DNA from: an uncultured delta proteobacterium
GTDB taxonomy: Bacteria > Desulfobacterota > Binatia > DP-6
DNA: 64,000 nucleotides
Direction: 5' to 3'
Assembly (NCBI GenBank): GCA_963815115.1
Contig: CAWFFN010000007.1
Location: forward strand, 416,001-480,000
A model generated the notes under the pieces. It saw only the letters and a program-made list of their open reading frames with translations. It made no database searches and was not told the origin of the DNA. Below are positions 39,555 to 58,947 of this stretch, in pieces (the first letter of the stretch is position 1; each line of letters opens with the position of its first letter). Made by a program: the position numbers and the translations under genes.

Positions 39555-40031
39555 CTATCGTCCCTTCGGCTCCGCGGACGGCTGGTTCTTCCGCGCGAGG
39601 TGCAGGAGCGTCAGCTGGTGCTTGGCAATGCGTCCGCCCGGGCGCAGGGCGATCAACCGGCGCATTTCCGAGAACAGCCACGCCGTGGCGGCGAACACGA
39701 TGTCGAATTGGCGGCCGTGGCTCTCCCAGGCCTCGAAATTCGCCGTGACCACGGAAACGCGTGGGAAGGCCGAGAGCTTCTCGGCTGCGATGCGTGCGAG
39801 GTTCGGGCCGAGCTCGACACCGATGATCTCCGCGCCGCGCTGCGCGAGCGGCCCGGTCGCGTGGCCCGTGCCGCAGCCGATCTCGAGGATGCGCGCGGAC
39901 GCGGGCGCGATCCCTGCGAGCCGGAAGAGATCGTCGAACATCTCCTCGCGGTAATAGGGCCGCGCGCGATCGTAGAGCTCGGCGATCTGGTCGAAAGTCC
40001 GCGCGCGCGCGAGCCGGCGTTCGTCGTCCAC
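39555..40031 (-). pseudogene. Truncated class I SAM-dependent methyltransferase
   Basis: TFDQIAELYDRARPYY, ILEIGCGTG, FDIVFAATAW, then an abrupt jump to a short C-terminus. Confidence 0.75.
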
Positions 40032-40068
40032 GAGGGGACAACATACCTGCGGCGGCGGCCGGGTACAC

Positions 40069-40118
40069 GCGCCGGGCAGATGGCTGGTGAGCACGAAGAG
40101 CGACCACGCCCTTCATGC
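40069..40118. repeat. Dispersed ~50-bp repeat with hairpin, copy 1 (copy 2 at 54552-54601)
   Basis: GCGCCGGGCAGATGGCTGGT identical in both copies, followed by a 12-bp-arm imperfect palindrome. Confidence 0.85.
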
Positions 40119-40123
40119 TTCCG

Positions 40124-41245
40124 TTACGCCGGGTAGCGCAGGATCGCTGCCAGTGGCTTTCCGCCGGGGATGTCGGCCGCTCGCACGCCGAGCACCCGTC
40201 CACCGGACAGGATGACGCGGCGGGCAATCTCGTCGACGATGCCGTAGCCGCCCGGTCCCGGCGCGCTGGCGAGCGTGACGGCCCCGTCCGCGTCGGCGAC
40301 CGTGCCGGGGACGACGGCGTCGATGTCCACCAGCATCGTCTCCACCGCGCCGACCGTGGCGGCGCGGGCGGCGCCGTCCAGATCGGTCGTCGCCCGGCCC
40401 TGATTCTCGCGCGCCGCGAAGGTCGCCGCCCACGCCGCGATCTGTGTCCGGTACAGCTCGTCGAGGACGGTCCGCGCCCGTGCCGCCAGGTCGGCGTCCG
40501 TGAGCCTGTCCGGGCTGCCGCCGAGCGTGATCTCGGCAAGATGGGGATAGGTGTTCACCGACCGGTAGATCGACGCGAGCGGCTCCGTGGCGGCCAGCAC
40601 CAGGGGCACCTCGAGCCCCGCCAGCGTCTCACGCAGCGCCGTATCGACCTTGCGGGCGTACTGGCGCAGCCGCACCTTCTGGCCCTCCGATCCCTGGATA
40701 CGCCCGCTGGGCGACCGGTCGTTGAGCGTCGCCTTGCCGAGCGCACCGGCGGCATCCTTCGGCATTCCCTGGACGTTCACCGCGGTGGCGGGCAGATCGG
40801 CCGAGACCTCCACGAGGCGAACGGCGCCCTCCGCCAGCGCGAGCACGTAGCCGTTGTTCGGGAAGGTCGCCGCGCGCAGCAGCGGCTTCAGGTGGAAGCG
40901 GTCGGACACCACGACGGTGGGAGATAGGGTACTGGGCACCCGAAAGGTATGGAGGTGGCCCGGTGTCGCGAGCACGGCGAGGCTGTGCGCCTGGAATCGC
41001 CAGAACTCGTCATCGTCGACGAGGTCGTCGATCTGCTCCGACACGGCCGCCACCCGACGTTTGTCGGCTCCCGCCTCGGTGAGCTGGCGGATCGCCTCCT
41101 TGCCGAGATTCCTGAACTCGATCCGGTTCGCGTCCGTGTCCTGCGTCACTGGAGTGGTCGGAAGGTAGATGGACACGCACAGGTCGTCCCGATGAGACGC
41201 GAGGGCCTTCAGCTCGGCTGCGGTCGGGATGTCGACGTACAGCAT
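40124..41245 (-). CDS. Bacterial archaeo-eukaryotic release factor (baeRF)-like protein
   Basis: MLYVDIPT..CVSIYLPTTP, VSDRFHLKPLLR, C-terminal GGRVLGVRAADIP..LAAILRY. Confidence 0.8.
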   Translation of the reverse strand: MLYVDIPTAAELKALASHRDDLCVSIYLPTTPVTQDTDANRIEFRNLGKEAIRQLTEAGADKRRVAAVSEQIDDLVDDDEFWRFQAHSLAVLATPGHLHTFRVPSTLSPTVVVSDRFHLKPLLRAATFPNNGYVLALAEGAVRLVEVSADLPATAVNVQGMPKDAAGALGKATLNDRSPSGRIQGSEGQKVRLRQYARKVDTALRETLAGLEVPLVLAATEPLASIYRSVNTYPHLAEITLGGSPDRLTDADLAARARTVLDELYRTQIAAWAATFAARENQGRATTDLDGAARAATVGAVETMLVDIDAVVPGTVADADGAVTLASAPGPGGYGIVDEIARRVILSGGRVLGVRAADIPGGKPLAAILRYPA

Positions 41246-41341
41246 CGCCCGATCGGAGCACGATCGTCGCGGACGTACAAGGGAGCCGAATCGCTCGCTA
41301 CGGAAGCGCCGCGGGCTGGCAGGGCCAGGACGAAATATCCG

Positions 41342-41503
41342 AACCTCGCCGCCGAGGGCCCGCCGGACACCGTGGCGCGCTCGATCTCGGGCCCCCGGAC
41401 CGCGAGCGTGAATGATCGGTATCAGATCACGCAGGAGGCGGCGAGGAAGGCCGCGCTGGCGGCGATGGCGGCGCGGATCGCGGAGCAGGTCCGGGGTTCC
41501 TGA
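41342..41503 (+). pseudogene. C-terminal remnant of a tyrosine integrase
   Basis: PDTVARSISGPRTASVNDRYQITQEAARKAALAA aligns with PDVVARTITGHRTASMQSRYNITQESAQRAALAA at 52900-53038. Confidence 0.85.
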
Positions 41504-41512
41504 CGAAGAGCC

Positions 41513-41534
41513 GCATGGACACCCTGCATGGACA
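41513..41534 (+). repeat. Paired GCATGGACA direct repeats (putative arm sites of the relic element)
   Basis: GCATGGACA-CCCT-GCATGGACA just after the integrase stop, same position as the GTTGACGCAC pair at 53051. Confidence 0.65.
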
Positions 41535-41566
41535 TCGGTTTGGAACGAACGACCTCGGCCCGGTGG

Positions 41567-41595
41567 TTGACCCCCGAAAGGCGAGCGGCTACAAG
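41567..41595 (+). promoter_or_regulatory. Sigma70-like promoter before the tRNA 5' half
   Basis: TTGACC-N17-TACAAG; homologous to 53104-53131. Confidence 0.7.
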
Positions 41596-41608
41596 CACTT
41601 CCGCTCTT

Positions 41609-41649
41609 GCGGGTGTAGCTCAGTTGGCTAGAGCGTGTGCTTGCCAAGC
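41609..41649 (+). tRNA. 5' half of tRNA-Gly(GCC), ending 3 nt after the anticodon loop (left att site of element A)
   Basis: 41 nt identical to 53146-53186, then divergent. Confidence 0.93.
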
Positions 41650-41747
41650 TGCTGAGGACCCGACCCGTAGCCGTCTAGAACCAGTGATAGCGGGGGCTTG
41701 CGCGTGGGTGCGTAGGCCACAGCAGGCCCCCGCTCGGCTACCGATCT

Positions 41748-41765
41748 GTTGACGCGCGTTGACGC
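41748..41765 (+). repeat. Paired GTTGACGC direct repeats (putative arm sites, left end of A)
   Basis: GTTGACGC-GC-GTTGACGC about 100 bp inside the left core. Confidence 0.7.
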
Positions 41766-41795
41766 AGGCTGAGACGGGCGGCGGCGCGAACCAGA

Positions 41796-42189
41796 TCAGA
41801 AGGGGTCATTCCCACCCATCCACTCCCGCAAGCCAGGGGTCAACGAGTGGTTCGTCTTGCAGGTACGGCAGTGGAAGGTGTGCCTCGCCGCGTCGGGGTT
41901 TCTCGGCACCAGACTCCATCGGTCGTTCGCGGCACAGGAAGGACAGAAGGGGTGCGGCTCCGGGTTGGTCGCCGACGAAACCCCACGGGATGCCATCGAG
42001 GGGTTCGACATCGTGCGGCGTGAGGCCCCGCTTGCGTTGGAGGGCCGCGACCTCTGCTGAGAGCGTCTCCAGCTGCTGCTTCTGCTGGTCGATCTGCTTC
42101 TGAAGCTCGGCGAGTGTCTCATGAACCTTGACCCACGGACGGAACCAATCCCAGCCGCGTTTCACCCAGGCCACTGGCAAGAAGTGCAT
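41796..42189 (-). CDS. Hypothetical coiled-coil plus zinc-ribbon protein (probable frameshift near 41965)
   Basis: ELQKQIDQQKQQLE in one frame; PFCPSC..FHCRTC in the adjacent frame. Confidence 0.55.
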
Positions 42190-42194
42190 TGCCC

Positions 42195-42623
42195 TCAGTG
42201 TCTCGTCACTGCGATCCCGATCTGGACGAGCATCAGGACAACGACCAGTACGTTGAGCAGCCAGACCCGTCGACTCAGCTGATTGCCGGTCTCAACCGTG
42301 CCGTTCAACGCCTTCGCCCCATCCCGAAGAGCGCCGGTCAGCGCGTCGAGCTGGCTGGTGGCGTCCGATGCTCCCTGCTCCATGGCCTTCGTCAGACCGC
42401 CGACTTTGCTGCCCAAGTCCATTAGGTTCGCGGAGACGGCGTGCGTCGCGCGGTTCAACTCTGAAGCCACCATCACCGCGAGTCGTGCATCCAACTCGGT
42501 TCTTCTCTCCTGCCCGAACGCGGTGGCAGGGGGGACCTGGCCGAGTACCTGCCGGATGCTGTCGGGCATTTCGTAGTCGTCAGGCAGCTTCGGCGCCGGC
42601 GGACTCTGGCGGTTGTCCGGCAT
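42195..42623 (-). CDS. Hypothetical protein with C-terminal TM helix
   Basis: Purine-rich RBS; amphipathic helix then VWLLNVLVVVLMLVQIGIAV. Confidence 0.65.
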   Translation of the reverse strand: MPDNRQSPPAPKLPDDYEMPDSIRQVLGQVPPATAFGQERRTELDARLAVMVASELNRATHAVSANLMDLGSKVGGLTKAMEQGASDATSQLDALTGALRDGAKALNGTVETGNQLSRRVWLLNVLVVVLMLVQIGIAVTRH

Positions 42624-43433
42624 GATCGATCCCCCTTTCGGTTCCTCGCTGGTAACGGCTAGGGCATGGCGAAGCTATCCCCCGGTCCATCTTCCACAGG
42701 GGCCCTTCGTTTGAGGGTACCTCTGCCGCGACGACTGTCTGGTCGGGTCGCTCGCCGCCGCGCCGCCTCCACCGTGCCCGGATTGGCCGACTCGGCGGCG
42801 AGCGCCCAACACCAAAACGAAACGCGGCACGCTGGGGTTGACCCGGCCCGTATGAGTCGTCGACCCTTTGCCTGAGCCGTGGCACCCCCCGCGACTCAAA
42901 CCGGCTGACAGTAGCGACCGGCAGAAATGGTCTCACAATCTGGCGCGGACCCCTTCCTAGCCGTCTAGACCCAATCCTGGCGGGGTTCCGCCGCGTGGCG
43001 CGCTGGCCACGGCAGACCCCCGTCGGCTACCGAGTCACGGCGGCAGACGCGCACAACATCCTGCTGTTGAGAACGATAACCATAGGTTGCGACTTCGGCT
43101 GATCGTAGCCATCGAGTGATGGGACTGATGCCGGCGACTGAGCGCGCGCCGCACCTCTGCCCGAGTTCTGCGAATCGACGAGTTCCTGCGCTTCCGAGTG
43201 AGGCTCGATCGCGCGCCCGACGCGGTGGTGCCATGCCAGGGCTCGGTCGGCGCCCAACCGTCGGGAGGCCAGACACAACGTCACGGCGAACGCGACACGG
43301 TGTACGGACCGCCGCGACGCAATGTCGGCCAGCCGCACAAGATGGCGACGAGCCAAGGTCGATGCCGTCGCGTGTTCCCTCCGGACGCGCTGTGGCGTCC
43401 CGACCAGTCGCTGTGGCAAGATGACACGCGCGT

Positions 43434-44403
43434 ATGTGGCCCTGGTCGACCGCCAGGATATTCGTGAGCTATCGGCGTGGCTCCGCTGGAGGATGGACGC
43501 CGCGGCTAGTCGACACGTTGAAGCGGCGCATCGCGTCGAAGAGGATCTTCGTGGACGTCGAAGGCATCGAGGCCGGCGACGATTTCGCGAAAGTCATCGA
43601 GCGCGAAGTTTCGAGGTCGTCGGTCGTGTTGGCGATCATCTCCCCCGGTTGGAGCTCCATCGCCGACGCACAGGGCCGTCGACGCCTAGAGGACCCAAAG
43701 GACCTCGTTCGGATCGAGATCGAGACAGCCCTCGCGCATAGCATTCGGCTCATTCCGGTCCTCGTCGGAGGATGTCCTCCTTTGGTGGCCACCGACCTGC
43801 CCGAGTCAGTGCAGGCCTTGGCGGAACGTCACGCCGTCGAGATCAGCGACAAGCGGTGGAACTATGACTGCAACATTCTCGCCAGCGAGCTGGCGAAGCT
43901 CGTTCCCTTCAGGGTATGGAACATCCGACGTGCTGTGACGGTCGGTGTTTGCGCGCTCGTGCTCTTGGCCCTCGCAAGCATCTACGATGACAAGTCGACC
44001 CAGCCCCCCGTATCGAGGCCGACAAACCAATCGCGCGACGCGTCGCAGCCGAGCTTGCCGCACCCTGCAGTTCCGCCACCATCCATTGGAATTGACGCAC
44101 GAGCTATTGACGCAGCCGCCCGTGCACGGGCCAATGACGCGGTCCGCCGTGCACAATCGGCAGCTGGGAGGGCAGCGGAGGCCGGGTATCTGCCTGAGCG
44201 CATTGGACACGGTGTCCGATTACGCCAAGAGCCTTGGACGCCAGTCCGTTGTCGACGCGGATGAGGCTGCCAGAAGCGCCGTCGCCGCAGCCGAGCAGGG
44301 CGGCCCCGACGCGCCCGGCGTTGCCGAGTCCGCAGCCACGAGAGCCGAACGCGACGCTGCGCGCGTCAACAGTCTGCTCGAGCAAGAGATGGATCGACGC
44401 TAA
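43434..44403 (+). CDS. TIR-domain membrane protein (probable frameshift near 44190)
   Basis: IFVSYRR..IFVDVEGIEAGDDF..VVLAIISPGW..DLVRIEIETAL..LIPVLV; TM AVTVGVCALVLLALA; Ala-rich tail continues in another frame to 44403. Confidence 0.85.
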
Positions 44404-44800
44404 CGCCTGTTCGATCAAGAGACAGGTCGAAGGTCTCTCCGCTGAGTTCCGGCGGTTCGTCGCTAGCCCTTCCCTAGCCCACCCCTAGCCCAGGATCATC
44501 ACCATGCCCAATCGGCGGGACCGCAACCGCATCGACTCGGATATCCGTCTCCCACGACGCCGTTCTCGTCGTCATCGAGTTGCCATCAGACCGTCGATGC
44601 TGATCCCGCTGGTTGCCCGAGTTGCTCGGCATCCCGGAGACTGAGGCGTTGCAGCTGCTCGATGACCTGGAGGCTGTGGGGCTGCCTCGTGAGCGCGACG
44701 GGGCCGGTGCAGTCGAGAATGCGTGCCAGCGATGCCGCGAAACTCTGGGTCGGCGGTTAACGTTGCTCGTTCGGTGGTCGGCCGGTAGGCTCAGACTCCA

Positions 44801-45685
44801 GTGCCCACGACGCCACCGCGTGACCTGCTCGACCGCGACTTGAGCAAGGCCCAGATGCGGGAGGCCATCGAGGTTGCCGTTCCGCTGCTCCAAGAAGTCG
44901 TGAACCATGGTGTGGCGGTACTGGCCCGTTGCCTTCCCGTGGTAAAGGACGAGGAACACCACCTCGCCATCCTTCTACTGTACCGGCATTTCCTGGAGAT
45001 GGTCGACGGCGTGGAAGTGCTCCTGGGGGCGCCAGCCAGCAGCGCGGCTCAACTGTTACTTCGGAGCGCCTTCGAGTTCATCCGCCATCAAGTACATGAT
45101 CGACGCAGACACGCAGCGCCGCGCCTTTGCTTACCTGGCTGCCCAGGCACAGCGCGAGATAGCGGCGCTGTGCACAGTGACGAAGAAGTACCCCGACCTT
45201 GTTGAGGCGAAGCACGTCGCCGAGAACATGATGACGTTCCAGGACCGGCTCGATCGACCAGGATGGCGGGAGGCGAACGAGGAGTTGCTGCGACTCGCCA
45301 GGAACGCGCTCGAAGAACGGGAAGGTTCGCACTAGTCCACTGGTTTTCCGCGTGGGGCGGTCCAGGTACGCTCGCGGACCTCGCCGGGCGACTCGGCACG
45401 GCGAAGGCGAGGGAGTACGACATACTCTACCGTCAGTGGTCAGCCGTCGTCCATGCCGGCGATATCGAGAGCAACCTGAAGAGAGGGCCCAGTGAGAGCA
45501 TGGTCATCCGGCGCCTACGTCTGTCTGTCGACTTCGGCGGGATAGTAGACTTCGCAGTCAACTTCGCCTACGAGACGGCCCGCGATGTACTTTCCCTCTA
45601 CCGCCCAGGCGAAGAGCGCGCGCTTGCCGAGTGGTTCCTTCGCGAGGTTCGTGACCGACGCAACCGGCTCACTGGCACGGCCTGA
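44801..45685 (+). pseudogene. DUF5677-like helical protein split over three frames
   Basis: LLRSAFE, HWFS..GGP..LADLA, YDILYRQWSAVVH across ORFs 44801, 45096 and 45263. Confidence 0.65.
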
Positions 45686-46384
45686 TTGGTTACGCAGGGA
45701 GATTCCCGGAGGGATCCGCGCCGACTCGACGCGCACCGGAACCCTCTGACCGCCGCCGCGTGGCTGTACGGGGATCCTCAGATCCAACCAGGGGCATCCT
45801 CGTCGGGGGGATGGACGTGCCACCCACGCCTCAGCGGGCCGCAGCGCCCGCCTGGCGCGCGCTGGGGGCCGTGTTGCGCGCGGTGCTTGCGTGTCTACGT
45901 CAGCGGGACCTCGGCCTCGACCTCGGCGTAGTCTCGCGCCCGAAGCGCCGCATGCGGCCGTACGGCCGGGCGGCAGATGCACCCGGCCCGGCGCCTCCTC
46001 GTCGGGGCCAGGACGCCGGGGACGTGCACGGCACGACCACCACCACGGTGGCGCCGTGACGGCCATCATCGCCGCCCCGCTGATCGACCCGCGCTATGCG
46101 CTGGTGATCGCGGTCGCCCTCTTCGCCTGTGCCATGGCGGCGATCGGGGCCGAGCGAAAAAATATCAGCGTTCTACATGCGGGGCGCCCGCGTACCCGGC
46201 TATCTTGAGTCGTAGACGTGCGGGATGGAAGAAGACCGGGCCCATGGGCCCTGACGGGCAGTAGGGTGATGGGAGATAAGCCTCCCCTTGACAGAATGAC
46301 AAGAAATTCCTTCCACTACGGCAAGGCCGGGTTTGTTAAGAGCGCACATGCCAAGGTCGACCGGGCCCTCACGGGTCGGGCGGG

Positions 46385-46441
46385 CTGGACGTCGACGACA
46401 ACCTGGACGTCGACAACAGCCCTGGACGTCGACCGACAACC
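46385..46441 (+). repeat. Three tandem 18-19-bp repeats with core CTGGACGTCGAC
   Basis: Units start at 46385, 46403 and 46422. Confidence 0.8.
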
Positions 46442-46962
46442 CACCTCCGTCATCGAGCGCCGGTTGGAACCGGACGCCCGTCAGGAATGCCCCTGGTACG
46501 CACACAGACGGCCGGAGACGCGCTTGCCCGTACGGGCCGGATTCGTCGCCTGGCCGTTGGCCCAGGAGGGCCGCAAATGGCCCCGGTGCTAGACAGGATC
46601 TCTCCTGCCGTAGCAGATACTGCATGCTGGCTGGGTGCTGTAGAGGCCTCGTGTAGCCCTGCGCGGCCGTAGGCCGGGTCATCCGTCCAGCCTGGGCGTG
46701 GGAAAGGCCGAAAACTGCCCGCGCATCGCGAAAGGGAATGCGTGAGGGGCCAGCCGCCATCGGGACCGAACTTCGAGAACCGACCCGGACCCCCACCCCC
46801 GGCCGTACGGGCCGTGGTTCCGGTGAGCTGCCTTGCTGCGGTAGTACCTTCTCCGCATCGTGTGCATCTGCAAGAATTCTTCTTGCCAGGTATACCCCGT
46901 TTGGGAGGCCGGAGCTTTACATTAGACGCTAGTCTGTGGTAAACGGAGGGCATGACAACACG

Positions 46963-47693
46963 GTGAAAGCGATAGGGTACTGCGCGTCTAGACGACGCGC
47001 AGGGCAGCAACGGCGGCGGCCTCGCTGCACAACGCGAAGCGATCACGCGGCTAGCGGACGCACGCGGATGGCAGCTGGTAGAGGTGGTCGAGGACGTCGG
47101 CGTGTAGGGCAGCGTGCGCTGGCGATCGCGCGCCGGGGCACGGGCGCTGGCACTGCTCCGGGATGGGGGCGCTGACGTGCTGGTGGTCAGCAAGCTAGAT
47201 CGCTTGTCGAGGTCTGCCACGACCTCGCCGGGCTGCTCGAAGAGAAGGCGAGACGTCGGAGGATAACGGAAGCGCCGGGGTGAGTACACCAGCTGGCGCC
47301 TGGTGTCGGCGACCTCGGCGAACTTGATATGACCACGCCCGTGGGGGAACTGGTCGCGAACGTCCTCGGCGCGCCAGCCGGATGGAACGGCGCATGATCG
47401 GCGTGAGAACGAGCGAAGCCTACGGGCAAGCAGCAACGCGCCGGGCTGCGTCTGGGCAGTGCACGGCGATGGCAGACGAGACGCGGGCGCTCGTGTTGTC
47501 GCTCTACGCGAAGCACCGGGGCTGGTCGGCGTGGGCCTCGGCGCTCAACGAGCGCGAGGTACGACGGCGAGCGGGGGCGTGCGGTGGTACCGAGCAGCGT
47601 GCGCAGCGTCGTGCTGGCGGCCAGCGCGACGTGCAGCGTTGCGGCCAGCACCTCGGCGCCGTCGGGACGACTGGCGCGGCTACATGCGCGTGA
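46963..47693 (+). pseudogene. Serine recombinase (resolvase-type), multiply frameshifted
   Basis: KAIGYC, WQLVEVVED, ADVLVVSKLDRLSRS, DMTTPVGELVANVL, ERRMIGVRT across frames. Confidence 0.8.
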
Positions 47694-48492
47694 CCCTTGC
47701 TCGGTGTCTCGGTCGCGGGTAGCGCGTGGGTCTCTGCCTCCTCTGTAGTGGCACTACGGCTCATGGCTCATGACCCATTCGCTCTACGGGCGCGTCGCTA
47801 AGTGCCTGATAACGCTTGCCTGTGACCCACCGTTCTCGCTGGCAAACCCCCACGGCTCAATAGGCTGGGATGTGCGGCGAACGCGCGTTCTGAAGACACA
47901 TAGGAGGGTCCACCATCGGCCTAGATTTCTCGGTCCATGGTCCGCTGACTTCGAGGTCTGGTTGACAAGGTGCTTTGGCGGCGATCTGGAGGCGTCGGTC
48001 GGCGTAGTCGAGGTGGCGCACCAACTGTCCGCTCGTCCGCGAGAGGACAGTGTCCGGCGACCCGTGGAAGACGAGAACGCTCGCGACGGGCAGGTGGAAG
48101 CGGAGGTGGACATGAGGACGAGAGCGGGGCGCGGGTTTCTCCCTGACGTCCGATGTGGCTCTGGTAGCTCAGGTCTCGATCAGTACGGTGCTGAACGCAG
48201 AACGACCGGGGCGAATTGATCCCGGTCGGGTCGAATACTACCAAAAGGGCTTCGCATTTTCGATCGGGTCGAGGTGCGCTGCTGGACGGCGGCACGGGCC
48301 ACTGGTGGTGAGGGGGTGTGATGGCGATGTGGAACGACAACGAACCGACGACGCGACCTGGCGGCGCTCCCGGCCGAGGCTGAGCAACTCAAGGCCGAGA
48401 GGCCCATTGGCGAACTGTATGGCAGGCCGAGGAGCGCGCCCGCAAGCAGGCGCGAGGCGGCGGCTTGTCGGGCAGCGGAACTGGCGACGCGC

Positions 48493-49492
48493 GTGGAGCG
48501 ACTGCGCGACACAGCGATGCCGCTCCTGCCGCACCTCACGGCGGACCAACTCACCGGCACATTCGAGCCGGTGTTTGTGCAGCTGCTCGATCAGTTGGAG
48601 GAAGACGCCGCCTGGGACGTTGATACCGACGCCGTCGGCGAGCTGCGATGGGAACTCGGGGGCGCGTACAAGCGGCGCCTGAAGGTGGTGCAGGACGCGG
48701 ACCAGAAGCGCCTGAAGGTGGTGCAGGACGCGGCACGCGTCGCGGACTTGGAGGCCGCCATCGCGCGGTTCAGCGCACATGTGTTCGCACCCGATGCCCA
48801 TCGGCAGCCGTGGTGGTGCACGTTGGTCTTCGAGGCCCGGTACCTCAAAGACGATTGCGGTGCGCTCCCCGTGGAGCAGGACCGCACACGGTTGCTGCAG
48901 GCACTGCAGCCGGCCAGGCTGCGGGTCGAGGAGCAGGAGCAGCGCGCCAAGCAGGACGCCGCAGCGGTCGAGCTGGAGGCGTGGCGCACCCGCGCCGTGA
49001 CCTGCTCATGGATCCCGGACCTATGCTTCCTCGATGCGGTGCCGTGCGACTACAAGGCTGCCTGGCGCCAGATCGATGATCTGCCCGCTGCGCAGGTGCT
49101 CCGGGGCTTGCGTGACTGGAGCGTGTGGAAGTCGTTCCCGCTCGACGCCTTCAGGGTGGTGCGTGACTACATGAACCAGGCTATCCGCCGGCCAGCGGAT
49201 CATCGTCGCTGGGACTGGCCCGCTGACGCCGAGACCGGGGCGTTCGATGCGCAGGGCCGGCCGTTCCCGCACAAGTTCGGATTTCTGGCCGTGCTGCGGG
49301 CGGTGGCATGGCAGCGCGGGATCGGCACCGCCGAGGCGGCGTGGAAATGGGACCAACGACGCCGGGCGAAGGTGAAGGTCGCCGCCATCTGCGGCGGCGT
49401 GTGCCGCGCCTGCGGTGCGCCGGAGGCGGATGCCGTCGAGCCCTTGGAGTTAAACCACCTCCTGTACGGCCAAGGTGGTCAGAAGCGAAAGG
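48493..49492 (+). pseudogene. Hypothetical protein with C-terminal HNH-like zinc domain, interrupted by IS3
   Basis: GGVCRACG..LELNHLLY just before the IS end; internal 33-bp-period duplication at 48675-48733. Confidence 0.55.
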
Positions 49493-50758
49493 TGGTCTTG
49501 CCCGTCCGGGCGAACACCTGAGTTAAGCCGCTGCGCGGCGATTCCAGTATCGGTCTCGTAGTCGACGGGGCTCATCATGTCGATGGCTGAGTGCGACGCT
49601 GGCGGTTGTAGACGGCTTCGATCCAGTGAACGGTCGCCGTACGTGTGCGAGCCGGGTCGGCTATGACCGGGGCTCGATCAGCGGAGCTTGTAGGTCGCGA
49701 AGAAGGACTCGGCGAGGGCGTTGTCCAGCAGACGCCGGTCTTTCCCATTGACTGTTTCACGCTGTGCGCATCGCACAGTGCCCGGAACTCGGCCGAGGTG
49801 TATTGGCTTCCCCTGTCCGAGTGGAAGATAGACACCTCAACGTTTCCGCTGCGCGTAGCGACGGCCATCATCAACGCATCGCACACGAGCGATGCGCGCA
49901 AGTGACCGGCGAGGGAGAATCCGATCACGCGACGCGAGAAGACGTCGATGACCGTCGCCAGGTACAGCCAGCTCTCCCACGTGCGGATGTAGGTGATGTC
50001 GCTGACCACAGCATGTCGGGGGACGGCGCTTCGAACTTCCCATGCACGAGATCGGGGATCGCCGGCGGTGTCGGTTCCGGTGTCGTCGTACGGACAGCGC
50101 GGTGGGCGACGACCTCGCAGGCTCGCTGCCTTCATCAACCGCGCTACGCGCTTGCGGCCGACCTCGTGGCTCTGGGCCTGCAACTCAGCCAGCACGCGGG
50201 GCACGCCGTATTGGCTGTCCGACGCCGCATGGATCGCCTTGATCTTCGCCAGCAGTGCCGCATCGTCTCGTTCACGCTGCGACGGCGGCCCGTCCTGCCA
50301 CTCGTAGTAGGCGGTGCGGGAGACCTGGGCGATCCGGCAAAGCTGCGTCACCGAATACCGACGACTCTCCGCCTCGACGAACCGGTACCGGCTCATCGGG
50401 TCTCCATCGCGAAGAAAGCCGCCGCCGCTTCAAGATGTCGCTCGTCGCGGAGCACCGCACCTCGCGCTGCAACGCGCAGCTCCTCGCGCTCCTCGGTCGT
50501 CAGCCCTCCCGTTCGCCGCGTCGACCGCACCTGCTCGACCAGCGGCGCACCGCTGTCTCGCTCAGGTCCATCTCCCGACAAATCGTCGGGATCGTCCGGT
50601 CACTCTGACGCCAAGGCGACGACTCGGCTTGAACGAACTCGTGAACGATCGCTGTGGGCGGCGACTCGCTGCCTTGCCTCCACTTCTTCCGCATCGAACA
50701 CCTCCTCGTGGGCTCACGCCACATCTGGGGTGTTCGCGGTGAGGGGCGAGTAAGGTCA
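49493..50758 (-). mobile_element. IS3-family insertion sequence, frameshifted orfA/orfB
   Basis: orfB YGVPRV, GRKRVARLM, SDITYI, LYLATVIDVFSRRVIG, HSDRGSQYTS; ends TGGTCTT..GCGAACACC and TGACCTT..GCGAACACC (reverse strand). Confidence 0.88.
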
Positions 50759-51462
50759 AGACGGACAAGTTGCGGAGCGACTCATCACGCATGCCGCGAC
50801 ATGGGGGACCGCTGTGGTGGGTCGAGCTGCTGTGCAGCGATGCATGCCATCAGACGGAGGCCAACGGGCCGGTGTCGTGTGGGGGCGACGCTCGATATGT
50901 GCGGACCGGCGAGCCACGCGGGTGATGACTTCCCGAGGGCTTGGCTTGCACGGTGCCTGTCGCGGCGCGCACGGCCCGGCACCGGCCCGTAGGGGCGGTT
51001 AGGCGTCAGGCATGAGGTTGTACTTGCAAGCAAACTGGGTAGTCAGGATGGAGTACCCTGACTATAACCCCCTCGCAATCCTGACGCCTCAGTGAACATG
51101 CCGAAAGGACGCGGGAATTGACCATCTGGGCACATCTGCGCTTCCGGTCCACCTCGGACTGCCTGACGTGCTCACATGCCATAGCACGTTGTGTCCGCGC
51201 GCGGGTCGATCGCCGAATGCATGTACTTCGACTCGATGTCCGAGTTGATGGACTCCGACTCGGTCGGCTCGACCGACGGCCAACCGCCCGCGCTGAGCCT
51301 TGGCGCGGAGCGCGTGAAGTCCGGCCACGGGACTGACGCCTGCCGAAATTCCTGCAGGCCACACACGCGATCCCGGCCACGGGGTCGCCTCGCAGATGCG
51401 TCGTCAGGCGGCTTTTTTTGCGGGGCGTAGCGAAACCGGCGACTACCCTATCCTCGTAGGTA

Positions 51463-51838
51463 GTGAAGACCGAACGAATAGGCAGCCGCCTGCGCCGCTG
51501 CCGACCGTCGCGGACATCGACCACTTGCCGCTGGCCGAGTTGCCGGCGTTGCCAGCGCGATGTCGGCGCTGCTCGCGTACATCACCCTGCGGCTGCGGTC
51601 GTTGGTGACCGACCACGGCGACGACTGCGACGTGTTCGACGTCGTGGAGGCCGCGCGTCGCATCGGCTGCAGCGAGGACGTGCTCCGCGAGCACGGCCAG
51701 ACGTGGGGCGTCGCGCTCGTGTTGACGCGGGACAAGAACGGCAGGCCGACCCGCGTGGTCTACCCTCGCGCCTTGGTGCGGGCGTACCTCGAACGGCGTC
51801 TGCCGAACATGCCGGCGACAACGTCGGCAGCCGCGTGA
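51463..51838 (+). CDS. Excisionase-like HTH protein (5' part frameshifted)
   Basis: FDVVEAARRIGCSEDVL..VYPRALVRAYLE directly upstream of the integrase. Confidence 0.65.
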
Positions 51839-51890
51839 TAGCTCGGCGGCACGGGCGTCGAGACCGACGGCCCGCAGAAGGAGGAACGAC

Positions 51891-53038
51891 GTGATGGCGA
51901 AGAGATCGAAGCTGCCGCCGGGCCTGTACCGGCGGCGGAAGCGCGACGGCACCCCCGGAGAGGTGTGGTGGTTCTGGTACCGGCCGCCGGGGAGCAAGCG
52001 CGCGGTGCAGATGAGCACGCGCACGGTCGACCTCGTCGAGGCGGAGCACTTCATGCACCGCAAGCTGGCCGAGGATACGCAGGCCCGCGCCGCGCGGATC
52101 GTTACGGCCTCGGTCACGGTGGCCGACGCGCTGGCGCTGCTCCGGAAGCACCGCGACGCGCGTGGTACCGCGATCCACCGCGCTCTCTACGCGGGCTTGC
52201 AGCACGCACTGGGGCATCTACTCGTCGGTGATCTGCGCCCCGTCCACCTCGATGACCTGTGCGCCAGGTGGCGGGCCGTGGCATCGAGTACCCGGACCGC
52301 GACCTGAAGAGGAACCCGCAGCACTCCGTCAGCGGGACGACGTGCAACCACGGCATGCGGATGCTCCGTCTGGCCCTGCGGCTCGCGTCCGTCAAGCTGG
52401 CGGTGCCGTTGCCGCCCGGCCTCGGCGACCCGCTGGCGTACCCGAAGTTCTCGGAGCCGATCACCGGCCAGTACATCCCGCCGGGTGACTTCTACGCCAT
52501 CCTGAGCCACATCGACGCGGGCCCGAAGCAGGCCCTGACCGAGGTTGCATACCTGACCGGAGTCCGGAAGGGCCAACTCCGGAAGACCGAGATACGGAAC
52601 GTCGCGTGGAGCGTGGCACCGTGACGGCGTTGGTGTGGGACTTCGGCAAGGTGAAGAACCGGCGCGAGCACGTCGTTGCCTGGCAGGCAGGGCGCAGGAG
52701 ATCATGCAGGAGTTGTGGAAGGGCCGGCGCCCCGGCTGCCCGATCTTCCACCTCGACGGCCGGTCGGTCGGGGAGCTGCGGAGCGAGTGGGAGCGCGCCT
52801 GCACGGCCGCAGGCTTCGCCGTGGGCCGGAAGGCACACGGCTTCGTCTTCCACGACACGAGGCGCTGCGGCGACCACCAACATGTCGGCCACCGGGCACG
52901 CCGGACGTCGTCGCGCGGACCATCACGGGGCACCGGACGGCGTCGATGCAGTCGCGCTACAACATCACCCAGGAGAGCGCCCAGCGGGCAGCACTCGCGG
53001 CCGTCGACCGCCTGATCAAGGCCGGGCGGGGTGCCTGA
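51891..53038 (+). pseudogene. int: Tyrosine integrase with several frameshifts
   Basis: N-terminal GLYRR..VWWFWY arm-binding-like region; TGVRKG (R), VKN (K), HDTRR (HxxR), TGH, SRY (Y). Confidence 0.9.
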
Positions 53039-53050
53039 GATGCCCGGTTT

Positions 53051-53072
53051 GTTGACGCACGCGTTGACGCAC
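53051..53072 (+). repeat. Paired GTTGACGCAC direct repeats (putative arm sites, right end of A)
   Basis: GTTGACGCAC-GC-GTTGACGCAC just after the integrase stop. Confidence 0.75.
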
Positions 53073-53103
53073 GGGGTGGAACGGACGACTTTGGCGCTCC
53101 AGC

Positions 53104-53131
53104 TTGACCCCGCAAAGGCGAGCAGTACAAG
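53104..53131 (+). promoter_or_regulatory. Element-borne sigma70-like promoter for tRNA-Gly
   Basis: TTGACC-N16-TACAAG, 14 bp before the tRNA. Confidence 0.7.
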
Positions 53132-53145
53132 CACTTCTCGCTCTT

Positions 53146-53219
53146 GCGGGTGTAGCTCAGTTGGCTAGAGCGTGTGCTTGCCAAGCACAAGGTCGTCGGT
53201 TCGACCCCGATCACCCGCT
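53146..53219 (+). tRNA. tRNA-Gly(GCC), intact, CCA not encoded
   Basis: GCGGGTG/CACCCGC acceptor stem, TGTGC-TTGCCAA-GCACA anticodon arm, GTCGG-TTCGACC-CCGAT T arm. Confidence 0.97.
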
Positions 53220-53400
53220 CTTACGAAGTCACGGACTTAGGTGGTTGGACCAGTGCCAGGGACCTCCGGGGTTCCTCTTCGCCATCGAGTTCGCTTCGAT
53301 GATTGGCTGAGTCATGAATCTGAGCGTGCCGGGAGGCGGATCGGTCTCGCCGTCGCGGCCCGCGAGCGGCGCGGCACCGTGGCAGATCGGGCGGCGGCAC

Positions 53401-54440
53401 TCACAGGACGCACCTCACCTGCGGCGGGAGCAGCTGGCGGCGCACCAGGTAGAGGTTCGCCAGCGCGAAGAGGCTGAAGGCCCGCGCGAGGTTCTTGGCG
53501 AGGCCGCGATACCGGACCTTGGCAAATCCCCACAGGCGCTTCACCACGTGGAACGGATGCTCGCCGCGGGCCCGGGTCCGCGACCGGGCCCGATTGATCG
53601 CCCGCCACCGCGGGGTGAGCGGCCGGTGCGGACCGGCGGCCCGCCGATTCACCCGATACCGCACGCCCTGGGCTTCGAAGACCTGCCGATCTGCTTCCTT
53701 CCAGTACGCCTGGTCGCCGTAAAGGACGCGTTCCGCACCGTGCAGCAGCTGCGGGAGCTGGGTGATGTCGGCAACCGCGGCATGCGTCGCGGTCACGCGG
53801 TGGACGCGCCCTTCGGATCGGTCCCGACATGCAGCTTCATCCCGAAATGCCACGCGTTCCCTTTCCGCGTCTGCTTCATCTCGGGATCGCGCGCCTGGGC
53901 GGCATTCTTCGTCGAGCTCGGGGCGGTGATGATGGTCGCGTCGACGATCGTCCCGCTCTGCAGCAACAGCCGCTTCGCGGTGAGCAGCTCCTTGACCGCG
54001 GCGAAGAGCGCGGCGGTCAGCCGGTGCTGCTCCAGCAGGTGACGGAAGCGCAGGATCGTCGTCTCGTCCGGGACCACGTCGTCCCCGAGCTCCACCCGGG
54101 CGAACCGCCGCATGGCCTCGCTGTCGTAGAGCGCGTCCTCCGCCTGCGGGTCGGAGAGATTGAACCACTGCTGCAGGAAGTAGATCCGGAGCATCTTCTC
54201 GAGCCCCAGCGGCTGCCGGCCGCGGCCGGCCTTCGGGTAGTAGGGTTCGATCACCGCGAGCAGCTGCGCCCAGGGGATCACGGCGTCCATCTCGGCGAGG
54301 AACTGCTCACGCCGGGTCACCTTGCCCTTCTGGCTCCACGCGATCCCAGCGAACGTCCGCTGCTCACCCATCCCCAACCTCCCGCGCTCGCTCGATACGT
54401 CCCGCTTCTACCCCATCGAGCGACTTGCGCAGAGCTTCCC
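53401..54440 (-). mobile_element. IS5-family transposase (frameshift near 53800) with upstream terminus at 54440
   Basis: KVTRREQFLAEMD, LEKMLRIYFLQQW, IVDATII, HFGMKLH, GDQAY, RARGEHPF..RYRGLAKN; terminus GGGAAGCTCTG; other terminus not identified. Confidence 0.9.
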
Positions 54441-54484
54441 TAACTGCAGTCGTGCATCGCCCGCGCGGCGACCGCGTCCCGGGG

Positions 54485-54514
54485 TGGGCACAATCTGGGC
54501 ACAATCTGGGCACA
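54485..54514 (+). repeat. Three tandem 11-bp-period repeats TGGGCACA(ATC) (putative arm sites)
   Basis: TGGGCACAATC TGGGCACAATC TGGGCACA. Confidence 0.8.
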
Positions 54515-54551
54515 GTCGATGCCGTTACGGAAGGGCAGCGGGCTGGTAGAT

Positions 54552-54601
54552 GCGCCGGGCAGATGGCTGGTAGGTACGAAGGACGAATACGCCCTTCGTG
54601 C
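54552..54601. repeat. Dispersed ~50-bp repeat with hairpin, copy 2
   Basis: Homologous to 40069-40118. Confidence 0.85.
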
Positions 54602-54612
54602 GTCCTAATCCT

Positions 54613-54816
54613 CTCCTAATCTGCAGCTCTGCCGTCCCGACGGCGCCCGGCTCGAACGAGTGCTCCTGCACCGGCGGTCCTGCGCCGTGCCAGATCGCCG
54701 GCATCGGGCCCGACGGTCCGACGTGCGGCGGGACCTGTCCGGAGGGACAGACGTGCCAGGTCGTCGATACCTTTCCGATCCCAGGGTGCCCGCTCCATCT
54801 CTGCGGCTGCCAGTAG
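54613..54816 (+). pseudogene. Orphan Cys-rich C-terminal module, paralogous to the end of the next gene
   Basis: CSCTGGPAPC..GPDG..TCGGTCPEGQTCQ..LCGCQ* versus CACTGGPRPC..GPDG..TCGGTCPEGQTCQ..FCGCQ*. Confidence 0.8.
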
Positions 54817-54909
54817 CGCCGCGTCGGTCGCGCCGACCAGCGCGGCCGCTGGCGCTCGCGGCTCGACCTCTTGACAGATTCCGATCGCGAGGCGCAGAGA
54901 GGGGTCGCC

Positions 54910-55653
54910 ATGTCGGCGCGCTCGGGCTTCCCGGCGGCGATGTTGATCGTGGCGGTCGCCGTCGCGGTGGCGGAGGCCGACACCCCGCCGGCGGATCACC
55001 TCCAGTGCTACGGCGTGCGGCGCGATCCACTCCAGCTGCGGGCGCTCGTCGACCTCTTCTCGAGCCAGTACGGGCTCGCCCCCGGCTGCAGGATCCGGAA
55101 GAGCGCCGTCGAGTTCTGCGTTCCCGCGAGCAAGACCGTGCGCGAGGCGCAGGACGGCGGCACGCGCCCGCCCACGCCGATCACGCCGCTCCCCGGCGTC
55201 GGCGCGCCCGCGGCCGGCGACTACGTCTGCTACAAGGTGTCCTGTCCGGACGAGCAGCTGCCAAAGGAGCAGCCGGTGACGGACCAGTTCGGCGGCCGGA
55301 CGCTGGGGCGATTGCGGACGACGAAGCTCTGCACGCCGGCGGTGAAGGGCACGACGACCAGCAGCACCACGACCACCACCACCAGGTGCACTCAGCCCAC
55401 CACGACAACGAATCCGCCGTGCGGCGAGGTCGGCTGCTTCGGCTGGTGCGCGAACGCGCAGTTCTGCGTGTCGACCGGCCCGACCGCGTCGGACTGCGCG
55501 TGCACGGGCGGCCCCCGCCCGTGCGCGTTCACCGGCCCCGGTCCGGACGGCGGCCTGACGTGCGGGGGTACATGTCCGGAGGGGCAGACGTGCCAGCCGA
55601 TCGACACGGATCCGTCGCCGGATTGCGTCTTCCTGTTCTGCGGGTGCCAGTAG
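54910..55653 (+). CDS. Secreted Cys-rich protein with poly-Thr linker
   Basis: Signal peptide; DHLQCY..FCVPASK and DYVCYK..TDQFG..LCTPAVK half-repeats; Thr run; Cys-rich tail. Confidence 0.85.
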   Translation: MSARSGFPAAMLIVAVAVAVAEADTPPADHLQCYGVRRDPLQLRALVDLFSSQYGLAPGCRIRKSAVEFCVPASKTVREAQDGGTRPPTPITPLPGVGAPAAGDYVCYKVSCPDEQLPKEQPVTDQFGGRTLGRLRTTKLCTPAVKGTTTSSTTTTTTRCTQPTTTTNPPCGEVGCFGWCANAQFCVSTGPTASDCACTGGPRPCAFTGPGPDGGLTCGGTCPEGQTCQPIDTDPSPDCVFLFCGCQ

Positions 55654-55660
55654 CCGCCGC

Positions 55661-55795
55661 TCAGCCGCCGACCAGCGCGGCGGCGCGCTCGAAGCACCAG
55701 AACGCGACGAGCGAGCCGATCGCGTAGATCGGCACGAGCCGCGCCCACCCGGGCGGCGCGGCGACGGCGCGACGGAACGCGCAGGGGCGCAGCTG
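55661..55795 (-). pseudogene. C-terminal remnant of a HupE/UreJ-like membrane protein
   Basis: ARLVPIYAIGSLVAFWCFER; upstream part absent. Confidence 0.6.
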
Positions 55796-55830
55796 TGACG
55801 GCAGCAGGTGTTCGTACTCGAACTCGACGC

Positions 55831-56152
55831 TCACCCGTGGACCTCGATCAACGCGAACGAGGTTGTCGCCGATACCGCCGCGCTGGTCTCGATCCGGACC
55901 TGGGAGGATGGCGGATACACGACCACTCCCCACGCGCCGTTCGTGCCCGAGAACATCGCCTGCGACGTCACCGAACTCCAGGGATCGAGATAACGGAGCC
56001 AGGCGCCACCAATGATCGGCTGGAACGCGGCATACCACGTGTTCGCTGCCGCCGAGCTGACGCCAACCAGCAGCGCGCGGTCAGTCGCTGCTAGGGTGAA
56101 CGCCGACGACACGGTCTGTCCGGCGACGACAGTGCCGTAGAAAGACCGCCAT
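55831..56152 (-). CDS. Hypothetical beta-rich, possibly virion-associated protein (frameshift near 56140)
   Basis: ATG at 56152 is one base out of frame with ORF 55831..56112; tightly coupled to upstream small ORFs. Confidence 0.5.
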
Positions 56153-56153
56153 G

Positions 56154-56318
56154 TCAGGGCTCGATGATCTTGCCGAGGAGGACGCGCTGCGCCACCAGGG
56201 CATCGCGGATCGCCGTGAGCCCGGCGTCGGGGGTGCGCTTGAGCACGCCGTCGAGGCGGCTGATCGCCGTCGAGAGATAGTCGCGCGCTTCCCGGAGTTC
56301 CACGTCCCAGTCCGCCAT
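56154..56318 (-). CDS. Small hypothetical protein
   Basis: MADWDVELREARDYL..; operon spacing. Confidence 0.55.
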   Translation of the reverse strand: MADWDVELREARDYLSTAISRLDGVLKRTPDAGLTAIRDALVAQRVLLGKIIEP

Positions 56319-56320
56319 GT

Positions 56321-56509
56321 TCAACCCGCCTTCGCGATCGCAGTCGCCGCCAGCGCGTCCAGCACGCGACGGGCGCGATGCGCCAAGCCTTCGGCCTTCT
56401 GGCTCTCGATGCTGCCGCTGCGCCGCAGCGCGTCCGCGGCGAGCATGTCGACGCTGTCGAGCGTGAGTCGCAGGGCTTCGTAGAGATCGAGATCGGTGTT
56501 CATGTTCAT
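56321..56509 (-). CDS. Small hypothetical protein
   Basis: GGAGG RBS; ATG overlaps upstream stop. Confidence 0.55.
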   Translation of the reverse strand: MNMNTDLDLYEALRLTLDSVDMLAADALRRSGSIESQKAEGLAHRARRVLDALAATAIAKAG

Positions 56510-58131: not shown

Positions 58132-58527
58132 GCCTCGCCCTCCTGCGCCTCTGCCTCCTGGGCGCGGATGAACTCGGGCAGCGACGGCACCGGCTGCGCG
58201 CGACGCTGGAGTCCGATGTCGCACAGCAGCGATTGCAGGTGCGCCTCGGCCCGGCGCACGTGTTCGACGACCGGCCACTCACGCCGATGACGCCGATCGA
58301 CCTGACAGCGCATGGTCGCGATGTAGGCGTTAGTCCTGGTCACGCGCATGGCAGCAGCGACGGCCAGGTCGATCAGGATGCCCTTCGCCGTCGACACCTG
58401 CTCGGCACCGCCGCAGTCGGCCATCAGCTGCTCGCGCAGCAGTGCCATCGCTTTCCTGTTCCTCGGGCGTGAGCGTCTTCACGTAGAAGCTCGAGCGCCT
58501 GTACGGTCGCTTTGCCGGCGTATCCAT
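58128..58527 (-). CDS. Putative terminase small subunit (frameshift near 58450)
   Basis: Overlaps terL start (GTGA); helical DCGG..VSTAK..LIDLA, IGLQRRAQPVPSL. Confidence 0.55.
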
Positions 58528-58566
58528 GCCCGACCTTGTCCTCGAGGAAGAGCCTATCAGGATCGC

Positions 58567-58735
58567 GGGGACACCGCAGGGGACACTGACCGGAAACCCG
58601 CGCCCAGCATGGACTTTTCGGCGGACATGTGCTCGCCGAGCACAGGCGCTGTGCCTCGAGCACGTCTTGGCGGCAATGCGCCGCTCGACGCGATCAGCGC
58701 AGTGTCGCACAGCATGGTGTCCCCTGAGTGTCCCC
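58567..58735. repeat. Two oppositely oriented pairs of GGGGACAC (putative arm sites near right end of B)
   Basis: GGGGACAC at 58567 and 58579; GTGTCCCC at 58717 and 58728. Confidence 0.7.
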
Positions 58736-58842
58736 GACACCACGCCATCGCAGGACAATGGACGAGCAGGGGCGTGCAAGAGGATACTTGAGACGACGGA
58801 CCTTCCGGTGCTGTGCGCTGTCCTGGTTCCCTGGGCCGCAGC

Positions 58843-58886
58843 GCTTGCCAAGCACAAGGTCGTCGGTTCGACCCCGATCACCCGCT
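58843..58886 (+). tRNA. 3' half of tRNA-Gly(GCC) (right att site of element B)
   Basis: Identical to 53176-53219; upstream sequence unrelated to the tRNA. Confidence 0.93.
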
Positions 58887-58947
58887 CTCAAGAAATCACG
58901 CACTTGGAAGCGCCCGACGCGTGTCGGCCTGCCTTTGCGGGTCGCCT

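Follow-up and report, generated by a model that had tools for sequence, protein, structure and literature searches.

How does the only tRNA-Gly(GCC) gene of a bacterial genome come to lie directly behind an integrase gene, with a copy of its own 5′ half 11.5 kb upstream? The DNA that raises this question, hereafter the window, is a stretch of 64,000 nucleotides (C7:416001-480000) from the 6.9-Mb, 12-contig genome of an uncultured delta proteobacterium (G000). The single tRNA that ARAGORN called in the window is tRNA-Gly(GCC) (53146-53220, plus strand), the one Gly-GCC gene among the 60 tRNAs of the 12 contigs. Our analysis indicates that the segment 41650-53186, referred to as element A, is likely a decayed element whose tyrosine integrase belongs to a small clade; members of this clade would recombine in the anticodon loop of a tRNA gene, in the reverse of the usual orientation. 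The features that carry this reading are as follows.

35330-36085, plus strand: CDP-alcohol phosphatidyltransferase gene (PF01066, E=3.8e-38), the native upstream neighbour of tRNA-Gly(GCC), which marks the start of the undisturbed locus
41567-41595, plus strand: promoter-like TTGACC-N17-TACAAG, displaced copy (TTGACC 41567-41572, TACAAG 41590-41595), 13-14 nt before the tRNA 5′ half
41609-41649, plus strand: displaced 5′ half of tRNA-Gly(GCC), seen as an exact repeat; its core, GCTTGCCAAGC at 41639-41649, is the putative attL of element A
41650-53186, plus strand: element A, probably a decayed integrative element of 11.5 kb (11,537 nt); G+C 0.63-0.67 over most of it versus about 0.70 in the flanks
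41689-41734, no strand assigned: 9-bp G+C-rich hairpin in the putative P′ arm
41748-41765, plus strand: GTTGACGC twice, putative P′-arm arm-type sites, 99 nt from the core
51894-53038, plus strand: tyrosine integrase pseudogene, delimited by frameshift-aware alignment to the metagenomic homologue P0004
53051-53070, plus strand: GTTGACGC twice, putative P-arm arm-type sites, 105 nt before the core; GTTGACGCA occurs twice at the same place in the metagenome contig L015
53104-53131, plus strand: promoter-like TTGACC-N16-TACAAG, probably element-borne (TTGACC 53104-53109, TACAAG 53126-53131), 14 nt before the tRNA
53146-53220, plus strand: intact tRNA-Gly(GCC) (ARAGORN), the genome's sole copy; 5′ part probably from element A, 3′ part probably from island B
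58843-58887, plus strand: displaced 3′ half of tRNA-Gly(GCC), beginning at GCTTGCCAAGC; the similarity reaches 58905, 18 nt beyond the tRNA end

Junctions within the anticodon loop

A repeat search of the window identified a 48-nt exact direct repeat (41602-41649 and 53139-53186) that lies over the 5′ half of tRNA-Gly(GCC); ARAGORN called no tRNA at the left copy, 41609-41649. When gaps were allowed, blastn extended the repeat to 111 nt at 87% identity (41541-41649 versus 53077-53186), and a weaker similarity of 73% over about 290 nt continues upstream on both sides into the 3′ end of integrase coding sequence. In the other direction, the identity of the left and middle copies ends after GCTTGCCAAGC (41639-41649 and 53176-53186), which takes in the whole 7-nt anticodon loop with the two adjoining stem nucleotides on its 5′ side and two more on its 3′ side. 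The right-hand copy at 58843-58905 is 93.7% identical to the intact gene over 63 nt (blastn). GCTTGCCAAGC is the sole sequence common to the three copies: to its left the intact gene agrees with the left copy, and to its right with the right copy.

Both ends of element A carry a GTTGACGC doublet, at 41748/41758 and at 53051/53063, and the 8-mer occurs eight times in the 64-kb window versus 3.06 expected. A diverged 73-nt second copy of the left-arm segment (41668-41740, hairpin included) was observed at 42958-43030, 1.3 kb inside the element; it has neither the GTTGACGC doublet nor a tRNA core ahead of it.

The original prediction, made from the sequence letters, described this geometry largely as we find it. 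The displaced 5′ half upstream and the intact tRNA at the far end are borne out by the exact repeat and by ARAGORN, the end of identity at GCTTGCCAAGC and the GTTGACGC pairs at both ends lie where it placed them, and the tRNA that it put about 110 bp behind the integrase stop lies 107 nt behind it. Its TTGACC-N16-TACAAG is present ahead of the intact tRNA, the spacer of the left copy being 17. The pseudogene and its accompanying insertion sequence, a tandem array of elements, the 3′ half at 58843-58887 and the relation to a known configuration, all treated below, go beyond that prediction.

An error of assembly, or a simple duplication of the segment upstream of the tRNA with no site-specific recombination, might also place a second 5′ half upstream, and the locus is seen here as assembled sequence, in an assembly of 12 contigs. 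The two copies differ, however, with 87% identity upstream of the 48-nt block and with different doublets and spacers, unlike a collapsed or duplicated repeat, and a genome of the same genus (G001) has the same type of junction at 91% identity. We give this explanation next to no credence.

The integrase and its relatives

The integrase of element A was predicted to be a co-oriented gene of the tyrosine type. Its orientation and family stand; the open gene does not. Aligned to P0004, a metagenomic homologue of 381 aa, the segment 51894-53035 retains 310 of 378 identical residues with five frame changes: 1-nt deletions near 52278, 52601 and 52678, and 1-nt insertions near 52866 and 52894. The terminal stop at 53036-53038 is the only one. 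The intact frame of a functional enzyme is thus broken by five 1-nt frameshifts, and the fragments give no Pfam match at E≤0.01. Since the frameshift contexts are not long homopolymers and long open reading frames (ORFs) are intact in the first 36 kb of the window, we read the frameshifts as real decay. Tyrosine recombinases share the catalytic set R, H-x-x-R, H/W and Y, and the corresponding codons are all retained in the pseudogene (GVRKGQL, FHDTRR, GHRT, SRYNI). Judging from these lesions and from an insertion sequence (IS) within it, element A is immobile by its own enzyme, and excision of this copy is not to be expected.

The relatives of this integrase are few and come mostly from metagenomes. 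Its N-terminal piece matched five metagenomic proteins, and a full-length search returned, among 5.8 billion, about 20 clusters at at least 51% identity, nearly all of metagenomic origin. Across 401 genomes of the class, matches came only from G000, from G001 and, as a relative of 36% identity, from G006; with the N-terminal piece, matches among 25 genomes of the family were confined to G000 and G006. No clade member was found in two scans of a genome contig collection or in one scan of a viral contig collection, tblastn gave no match at 1e-10 in phage and plasmid collections, and the clade profile matched no PDB sequence at 0.01. The relatives support assignment to the family: the integrases P0004, P0005, P0006 and those of L015 and L017 score 46.7-52.2 bits against PF00589 (cut-off 27.1), and R225, H321-x-x-R324, H347 and Y356 are invariant in all six aligned clade sequences. 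An AlphaFold model of the clade, built from six sequences, has a mean pLDDT of 46 and is confident only at residues ~4-60, which form three strands and a helix; we take this to be the fold of lambda-type arm-binding domains.

The surroundings of these relatives are informative. Five metagenome contigs (L015-L019) were compared, of which L018 and L019 end inside the integrase gene and were excluded from the count below. In L015 an uninterrupted integrase is followed by GTTGACGCA twice, TTGAC-N17-TACAAG and an intact co-oriented tRNA-Gly(GCC). L017 has the same order, with CATGGACAC twice as its doublet and again TTGAC-N17-TACAAG before an intact co-oriented tRNA-Gly(GCC). In L016 the integrase has one in-frame stop and is followed by CGTGGACRC twice, a different promoter-like pair and the 5′ half alone of another tRNA, which ends two bases past the anticodon loop, the geometry of the window junction. 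L016 also holds a second, unrelated tyrosine integrase (415-1566, minus strand; PF00589, E=4e-26), which lies directly upstream of the clade integrase and diverges from it. G001 has an integrase remnant, a promoter and a 5′ half, then GATACGGACAC twice about 105 nt beyond the half, and another integrase remnant ahead of its intact tRNA-Gly; one of its loci (L020) has a bare tRNA 5′ half next to the integrase, as in L016.

Counting integrases and remnants at least 54% identical to P0004 (54-86%) for which the 3′ flank is available, a co-oriented tRNA or 5′ half follows the integrase in seven of eight cases (two in G000, two in G001, and L015, L016 and L017). The eighth, a second remnant in G001 (L021), has kept just 25 nt of promoter-like sequence, and convergent arrangements number zero of eight. 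The homologue search proposed with the original prediction thus came out in its favour, with a promoter and a co-oriented tRNA or 5′ half following in seven of the eight close cases, and the attP layout that it put forward, integrase, arm repeats, promoter, 5′ half and core, recurs in L015, L017, L016 and G001.

Each copy carries its own doublet directly after the stop (GTTGACGC(A), CATGGACAC or CGTGGACRC). At residues 30-45 of the N-terminal domain (alignment A4; second or third strand), the window integrase and that of L015, both with GTTGACGC(A) doublets, share GSKRAVQ, and L017, with CATGGACAC doublets, has GRHQPIK at that position. The arm-binding domain and the arm site may therefore co-vary, the cases being few. 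Two distant homologues are convergent with their tRNA, the usual layout: one of 36% identity beside tRNA-Leu in G006 and one of 31% beside tRNA-Gly(GCC) in G012, where a repeat doublet again follows the integrase stop. From this comparison, the reversed layout appears to be one in which the tRNA segment has flipped while the module of integrase plus arm sites is conserved.

These layouts also bear on the idea that element A was a conventional island supplying the tRNA 3′ part, a piece of the tRNA being carried upstream later by an inversion or some other rearrangement. The locus is a hotspot prone to such events, with two IS elements, and downstream synteny is lost. Yet the fragment found upstream, a 5′ half, runs in the direct orientation and has a promoter of its own, where an inversion predicts an inverted copy or a 3′ piece, and unrelated metagenome contigs whose integrases are uninterrupted show the layout again. 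We regard a rearrangement of this kind as highly improbable.

A tRNA gene probably assembled from mobile halves

Five genomes from the same family (G002, G005, G011, G012 and G013) show the native state of the locus: in them, tRNA-Gly lies 54-80 nt behind the CDP-alcohol phosphatidyltransferase gene. This gap leaves no room for an element, and the module described above is absent from it. In G000 the phosphatidyltransferase gene ends at 36085, 5.5 kb ahead of the first tRNA fragment, and we found neither a native promoter nor a 5′ tRNA fragment directly after it (36086 onward).

Across 13 tRNA-Gly loci of relatives, the positions of the two hexamers are constant and their spacers vary. This conservation is our main argument for reading the hexamer pair as a promoter. 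The promoter region of the displaced copy is 91-92% identical to the region upstream of tRNA-Gly in G001 and G003. The native pair differs in G002, of the same genus (TTGACT-N16-TATCAC), and the native intergenic region of G011, of another genus, has TTGACC-N17-TACAAG, the same type as in the element. This suggests that the element carries a host-type tRNA-Gly promoter and did not invent one. The claim that the promoter of the intact gene is element-derived thus has indirect support, in that the module recurs in seven of eight clade cases and native sites lack it, and has to be narrowed as to the promoter's origin. A further tRNA-Gly with an element-type promoter and one doublet unit lies 1.4 kb from the phosphatidyltransferase gene in G003 (L022, 11700-11805); neither an integrase nor a displaced 5′ fragment was found at that locus, as if an element since lost had replaced the promoter for good.

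The left copy of the tRNA 5′ half is itself preceded by element-like DNA.

41327-41503, plus strand: int0, a C-terminal integrase remnant of the same clade, about 47-58 codons (tblastn with P0004: 53% over 47 aa, E=5e-10)
41514-41535, plus strand: direct repeat pair CATGGACA(C/T), twice; candidate arm-type sites of an older element, positioned like the GTTGACGC pair of element A

In the translation of int0, the conserved GH is changed to GP. A pair of the CATGGACA(C/T) type also follows the integrase stop in L017 and G001. Because the left copy stands behind an integrase remnant of the same clade with a doublet of its own, it does not represent native host DNA, and the locus is best described as a tandem array. 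Between the native flank and this remnant lie a baeRF family 11 gene (bacterial archaeo-eukaryotic release-factor-like domain, E=3e-57; 40124-41245, minus strand) and an adjoining ORF with a methyltransferase domain (39555-40094, minus strand), which may be cargo of the older element.

To the right of the intact tRNA gene lies a segment of a different character.

53187-58842, no strand assigned: island B, remains of a prophage in the conventional orientation, 5.6 kb, bounded by the displaced tRNA-Gly 3′ half
53401-54377, minus strand: DDE transposase, frameshifted, in island B (domain search)
56506-58278, minus strand: terminase-large-subunit-like ORF of 590 aa in island B (phrog_2, E=3e-18)

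Probing island B with the G012 integrase brought no integrase or remnant of one to light. Element A would supply the 5′ part of the working tRNA-Gly(GCC) and island B the 3′ part, so the gene would be built of two element-derived halves, whatever the order of events. A further copy of GCTTGCCAAGC, with a degenerate tRNA-Gly(GCC) 3′ half, occurs far from any tRNA-Gly gene on contig C5 (~1220403-1220450); integrase-like tblastn matches lie 6 and 17 kb away, and this copy could be an att region belonging to a conventional element that resides at another site.

The presence of island B raises the question of whether 41650-58842 is instead one composite prophage of 17 kb, which used the 11-bp core without rebuilding the tRNA and brought its own complete tRNA-Gly(GCC) beside the integrase. 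The three copies do share just the 11-bp core, the right part does contain a terminase-like phage gene, and cores of ~10 bp together with a phage tRNA of the same isotype are described, as far as that account goes, in PMC10865867. This explanation is nonetheless unlikely. The GTTGACGC doublets bracket 41650-53186 and not 41650-58842, and none was found in the 150 nt left of 58843. Ahead of the left-hand 5′ half, which this explanation would assign to the host, an integrase remnant, a doublet and a promoter follow one another in that same order, and native sites are without such a module. Finally, the bare 5′ half beside the integrase in L016 and at the G001 locus L020 would demand an extra integration each time.

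Under the preferred reading, a reverse-oriented element in the anticodon loop, the attP of element A would be formed by joining 53186 to 41650. On one side it would comprise the integrase stop, a doublet, a conserved GGAACGGACGAC box, the promoter, the tRNA 5′ half and the core, and on the other the hairpin at 41689-41734 and the second doublet. The integrase points toward attP, so that two direct repeats (presumed arm-type sites), the promoter and the 5′ half would lie between its stop and the core. The N-terminal domain of the integrase would bind the doublets, and strand exchange would take place in the anticodon loop. Integration would then carry the promoter and 5′ half that stood at the site away to the left, to the far end, and fuse the promoter and 5′ half of the element to the resident 3′ half. 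At least two such integrations may be envisaged. An older element would have left the integrase 3′ remnant, repeats, promoter and 5′ half at 41327-41649, and each integration would displace the previous promoter and 5′ half leftward, giving the array of older remnant, element A and tRNA. A separate, conventional prophage would have entered the same core from the other side; the 3′ half now in use would be its contribution, and the earlier 3′ half would have been pushed to 58843. We infer arm-site function, the position of the crossover within the core and the order of events from the arrangement of these sequences. As a consequence of such events, the genome's only tRNA-Gly(GCC) would now be read from an element-supplied promoter.

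Several points weigh against this reading. Excision, the circular form and the empty site of element A are deduced from sequence comparison, and since downstream synteny with the same-genus genomes is lost, no exact empty site of this strain was found. The promoter activity of the TTGACC/TACAAG pair is deduced from conservation only, and a strict sigma-70 scan called a promoter in neither copy, because TACAAG ends in G and not in T. The sample of relatives is small, with three cases from one related genome. The half in L016 appears, on our own reading of the sequence, to be that of a tRNA-Arg(ACG), and no matching repeat pair was found beyond it. Lastly, no replication, transfer or virion genes were recognised in the cargo of element A (Pfam and PHROGs).

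A broader view would be that the clade is a dedicated reverse-orientation lineage whose attP carries a portable tRNA-promoter cassette, and that decay of its members leaves permanent promoter replacements at single-copy essential tRNA genes. It would fit the G000 tRNA made of two mobile halves and the G003 promoter and half-doublet with no integrase nearby. The tRNA-Gly of G017 (L012, 1440-1513) has upstream of it a 15-nt direct repeat pair and TTGCGG-N17-TAAGT, and this upstream sequence resembles positions 2785-2865 of L016, upstream of the putative tRNA-Arg half beside the clade integrase. No integrase was found within 1.5 kb of the G017 gene, and its upstream sequence may be the scar of a related element, with a promoter cassette shared between targets. 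The presence of TTGCGG-N17-TAAGT before both the L016 half and the G017 tRNA-Gly suggests that the cassette moves between tRNA targets. We put forward this broader view as a tentative one, and are inclined to doubt it.

The interior of element A adds little to its identification. Its recognisable contents, together with one small ORF, are listed here.

43434-44264, plus strand: TIR-domain cargo ORF (PF13676, E=5.8e-11; weak ThsB match, E=1.3e-4, PADLOC)
49492-50751, minus strand: insertion sequence of 1.26 kb inside element A, with an rve/HTH_21 transposase (Pfam)
51560-51838, plus strand: small ORF of 92 aa, GC3 0.93, directly upstream of the integrase; at the same position in L016, L017 and L018 with 43-52% identity (tblastx)

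When the ORFs of element A were compared with Pfam, PHROGs and PADLOC, the TIR domain and the IS transposase were the sole matches, and no partner gene was recognised for the TIR ORF. The insertion sequence, which from its rve and HTH_21 domains we take to belong to the IS3 family, has four more genomic copies at 90-96% identity (blastn). The small ORF matched no Pfam or PHROG family; from its position it may be considered a candidate excision or regulatory (directionality) factor. The tblastx run was mostly high-G+C noise, and only its matches at 51488-51805 and the blastn matches of the IS were used. An integrative conjugative element of the actinomycete type was also considered and dropped, as no replication or transfer genes were seen.

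Comparison with known systems

The original prediction saw in this locus a little-described system. That was overstated, since islands with a 5′ tRNA fragment have been catalogued (159 of 3919) and reviewed. Table 1 of Islander lists 159 islands with a 5′ fragment versus 3760 with a 3′ fragment, of 3919 in total (Hudson, Lau & Williams 2015, PMC4383910). By the description given there, the 5′-fragment islands resemble element A in having an intact tDNA, a co-oriented upstream 5′ fragment, an integrase between them and an anticodon-centred site. The Islander filters, as set out in that paper, require an integrase gene within an interval of 2-200 kb and an integrase ORF with a Pfam match (PMC4383910). 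Our locus has the intact tDNA and the co-oriented upstream 5′ fragment, and an integrase lies in the 11,537-nt interval only if the pseudogene is counted. Its integrase fragments, in contrast to those of listed islands, are without a Pfam match, and the island would probably be missed by the filter as published. More generally, island finders that require an intact integrase or seek 3′ fragments alone would miss such a locus.

Williams (2002) is said to have distinguished an anticodon-loop sublocation class among tRNA integrases. The usual anticodon-loop integrases, for example that of G012, share with our clade the position of the core, the order of integrase, doublet and tRNA piece, and PF00589. 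In this usual class (G012, G006), however, the 3′ end of the tRNA faces the integrase, whereas in our clade the promoter and 5′ end face it. A distant relative with a flipped tRNA piece could be used for studying how target orientation is reversed.

The element of Zhao and Williams (2002) reportedly comes from a rhizobium. By description, its tyrosine integrase, like that of element A, recombines with the 5′-distal part of the tRNA, so that the 5′ part, along with the means of transcribing it, has to come with the element. The host group differs, the integrase lineage is presumably different as well, and element A is dead and lies in a tandem array. The Zhao & Williams study is cited in PMC6563490 and PMC1635311, and 5′-fragment islands are treated in two reviews (PMC6563490, PMC8371274), to the extent that these summaries go.

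The pTN3-like archaeal integrases (Cossu et al. 2017) use the tRNA 5′ half as attB and leave a rebuilt tRNA under an element promoter, according to the account in the review PMC8371274, which calls such use of the 5′ half “seldomly encountered in bacteria”. Element A would share both the 5′-half attB and the rebuilt tRNA under an element promoter. The archaeal systems, compared here by description as summarised in that review, are plasmids and viruses in which the tRNA is transcribed from the integrase promoter. In element A, by contrast, the integrase lies co-oriented upstream, and a separate promoter-like pair stands between its stop and the tRNA.

In the tRNA-dependent lysogeny of actinobacteriophages, attP and attB share ~10 bp, and integration does not restore the tRNA, whose loss is made good by a complete tRNA gene that the phage carries separately, as outlined by Guerrero-Bustamante & Hatfull (2024, PMC10865867). 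In both cases, so far as that outline extends, an essential host tRNA function depends on tRNA sequence borne by the element. Element A differs in that 48 nt are shared exactly and the promoter besides (111 nt at 87%), and in that the junction forms the working gene itself; the arrangement is not that of tRNA-dependent lysogeny.

With nearly all elements that target tRNA genes, transcription stays under the host promoter, and exchanges of promoter and 5′ half are rare, at ~4% of the islands tabulated by Islander (PMC4383910). An essential single-copy tRNA gene may stay permanently dependent on mobile DNA, in both its halves and its promoter, after the elements have decayed. The arrangement at this locus is of a rare known kind, and the locus adds to it a new bacterial lineage with a clear modular attP, as reconstructed, of integrase, repeat doublet, promoter and tRNA 5′ half.

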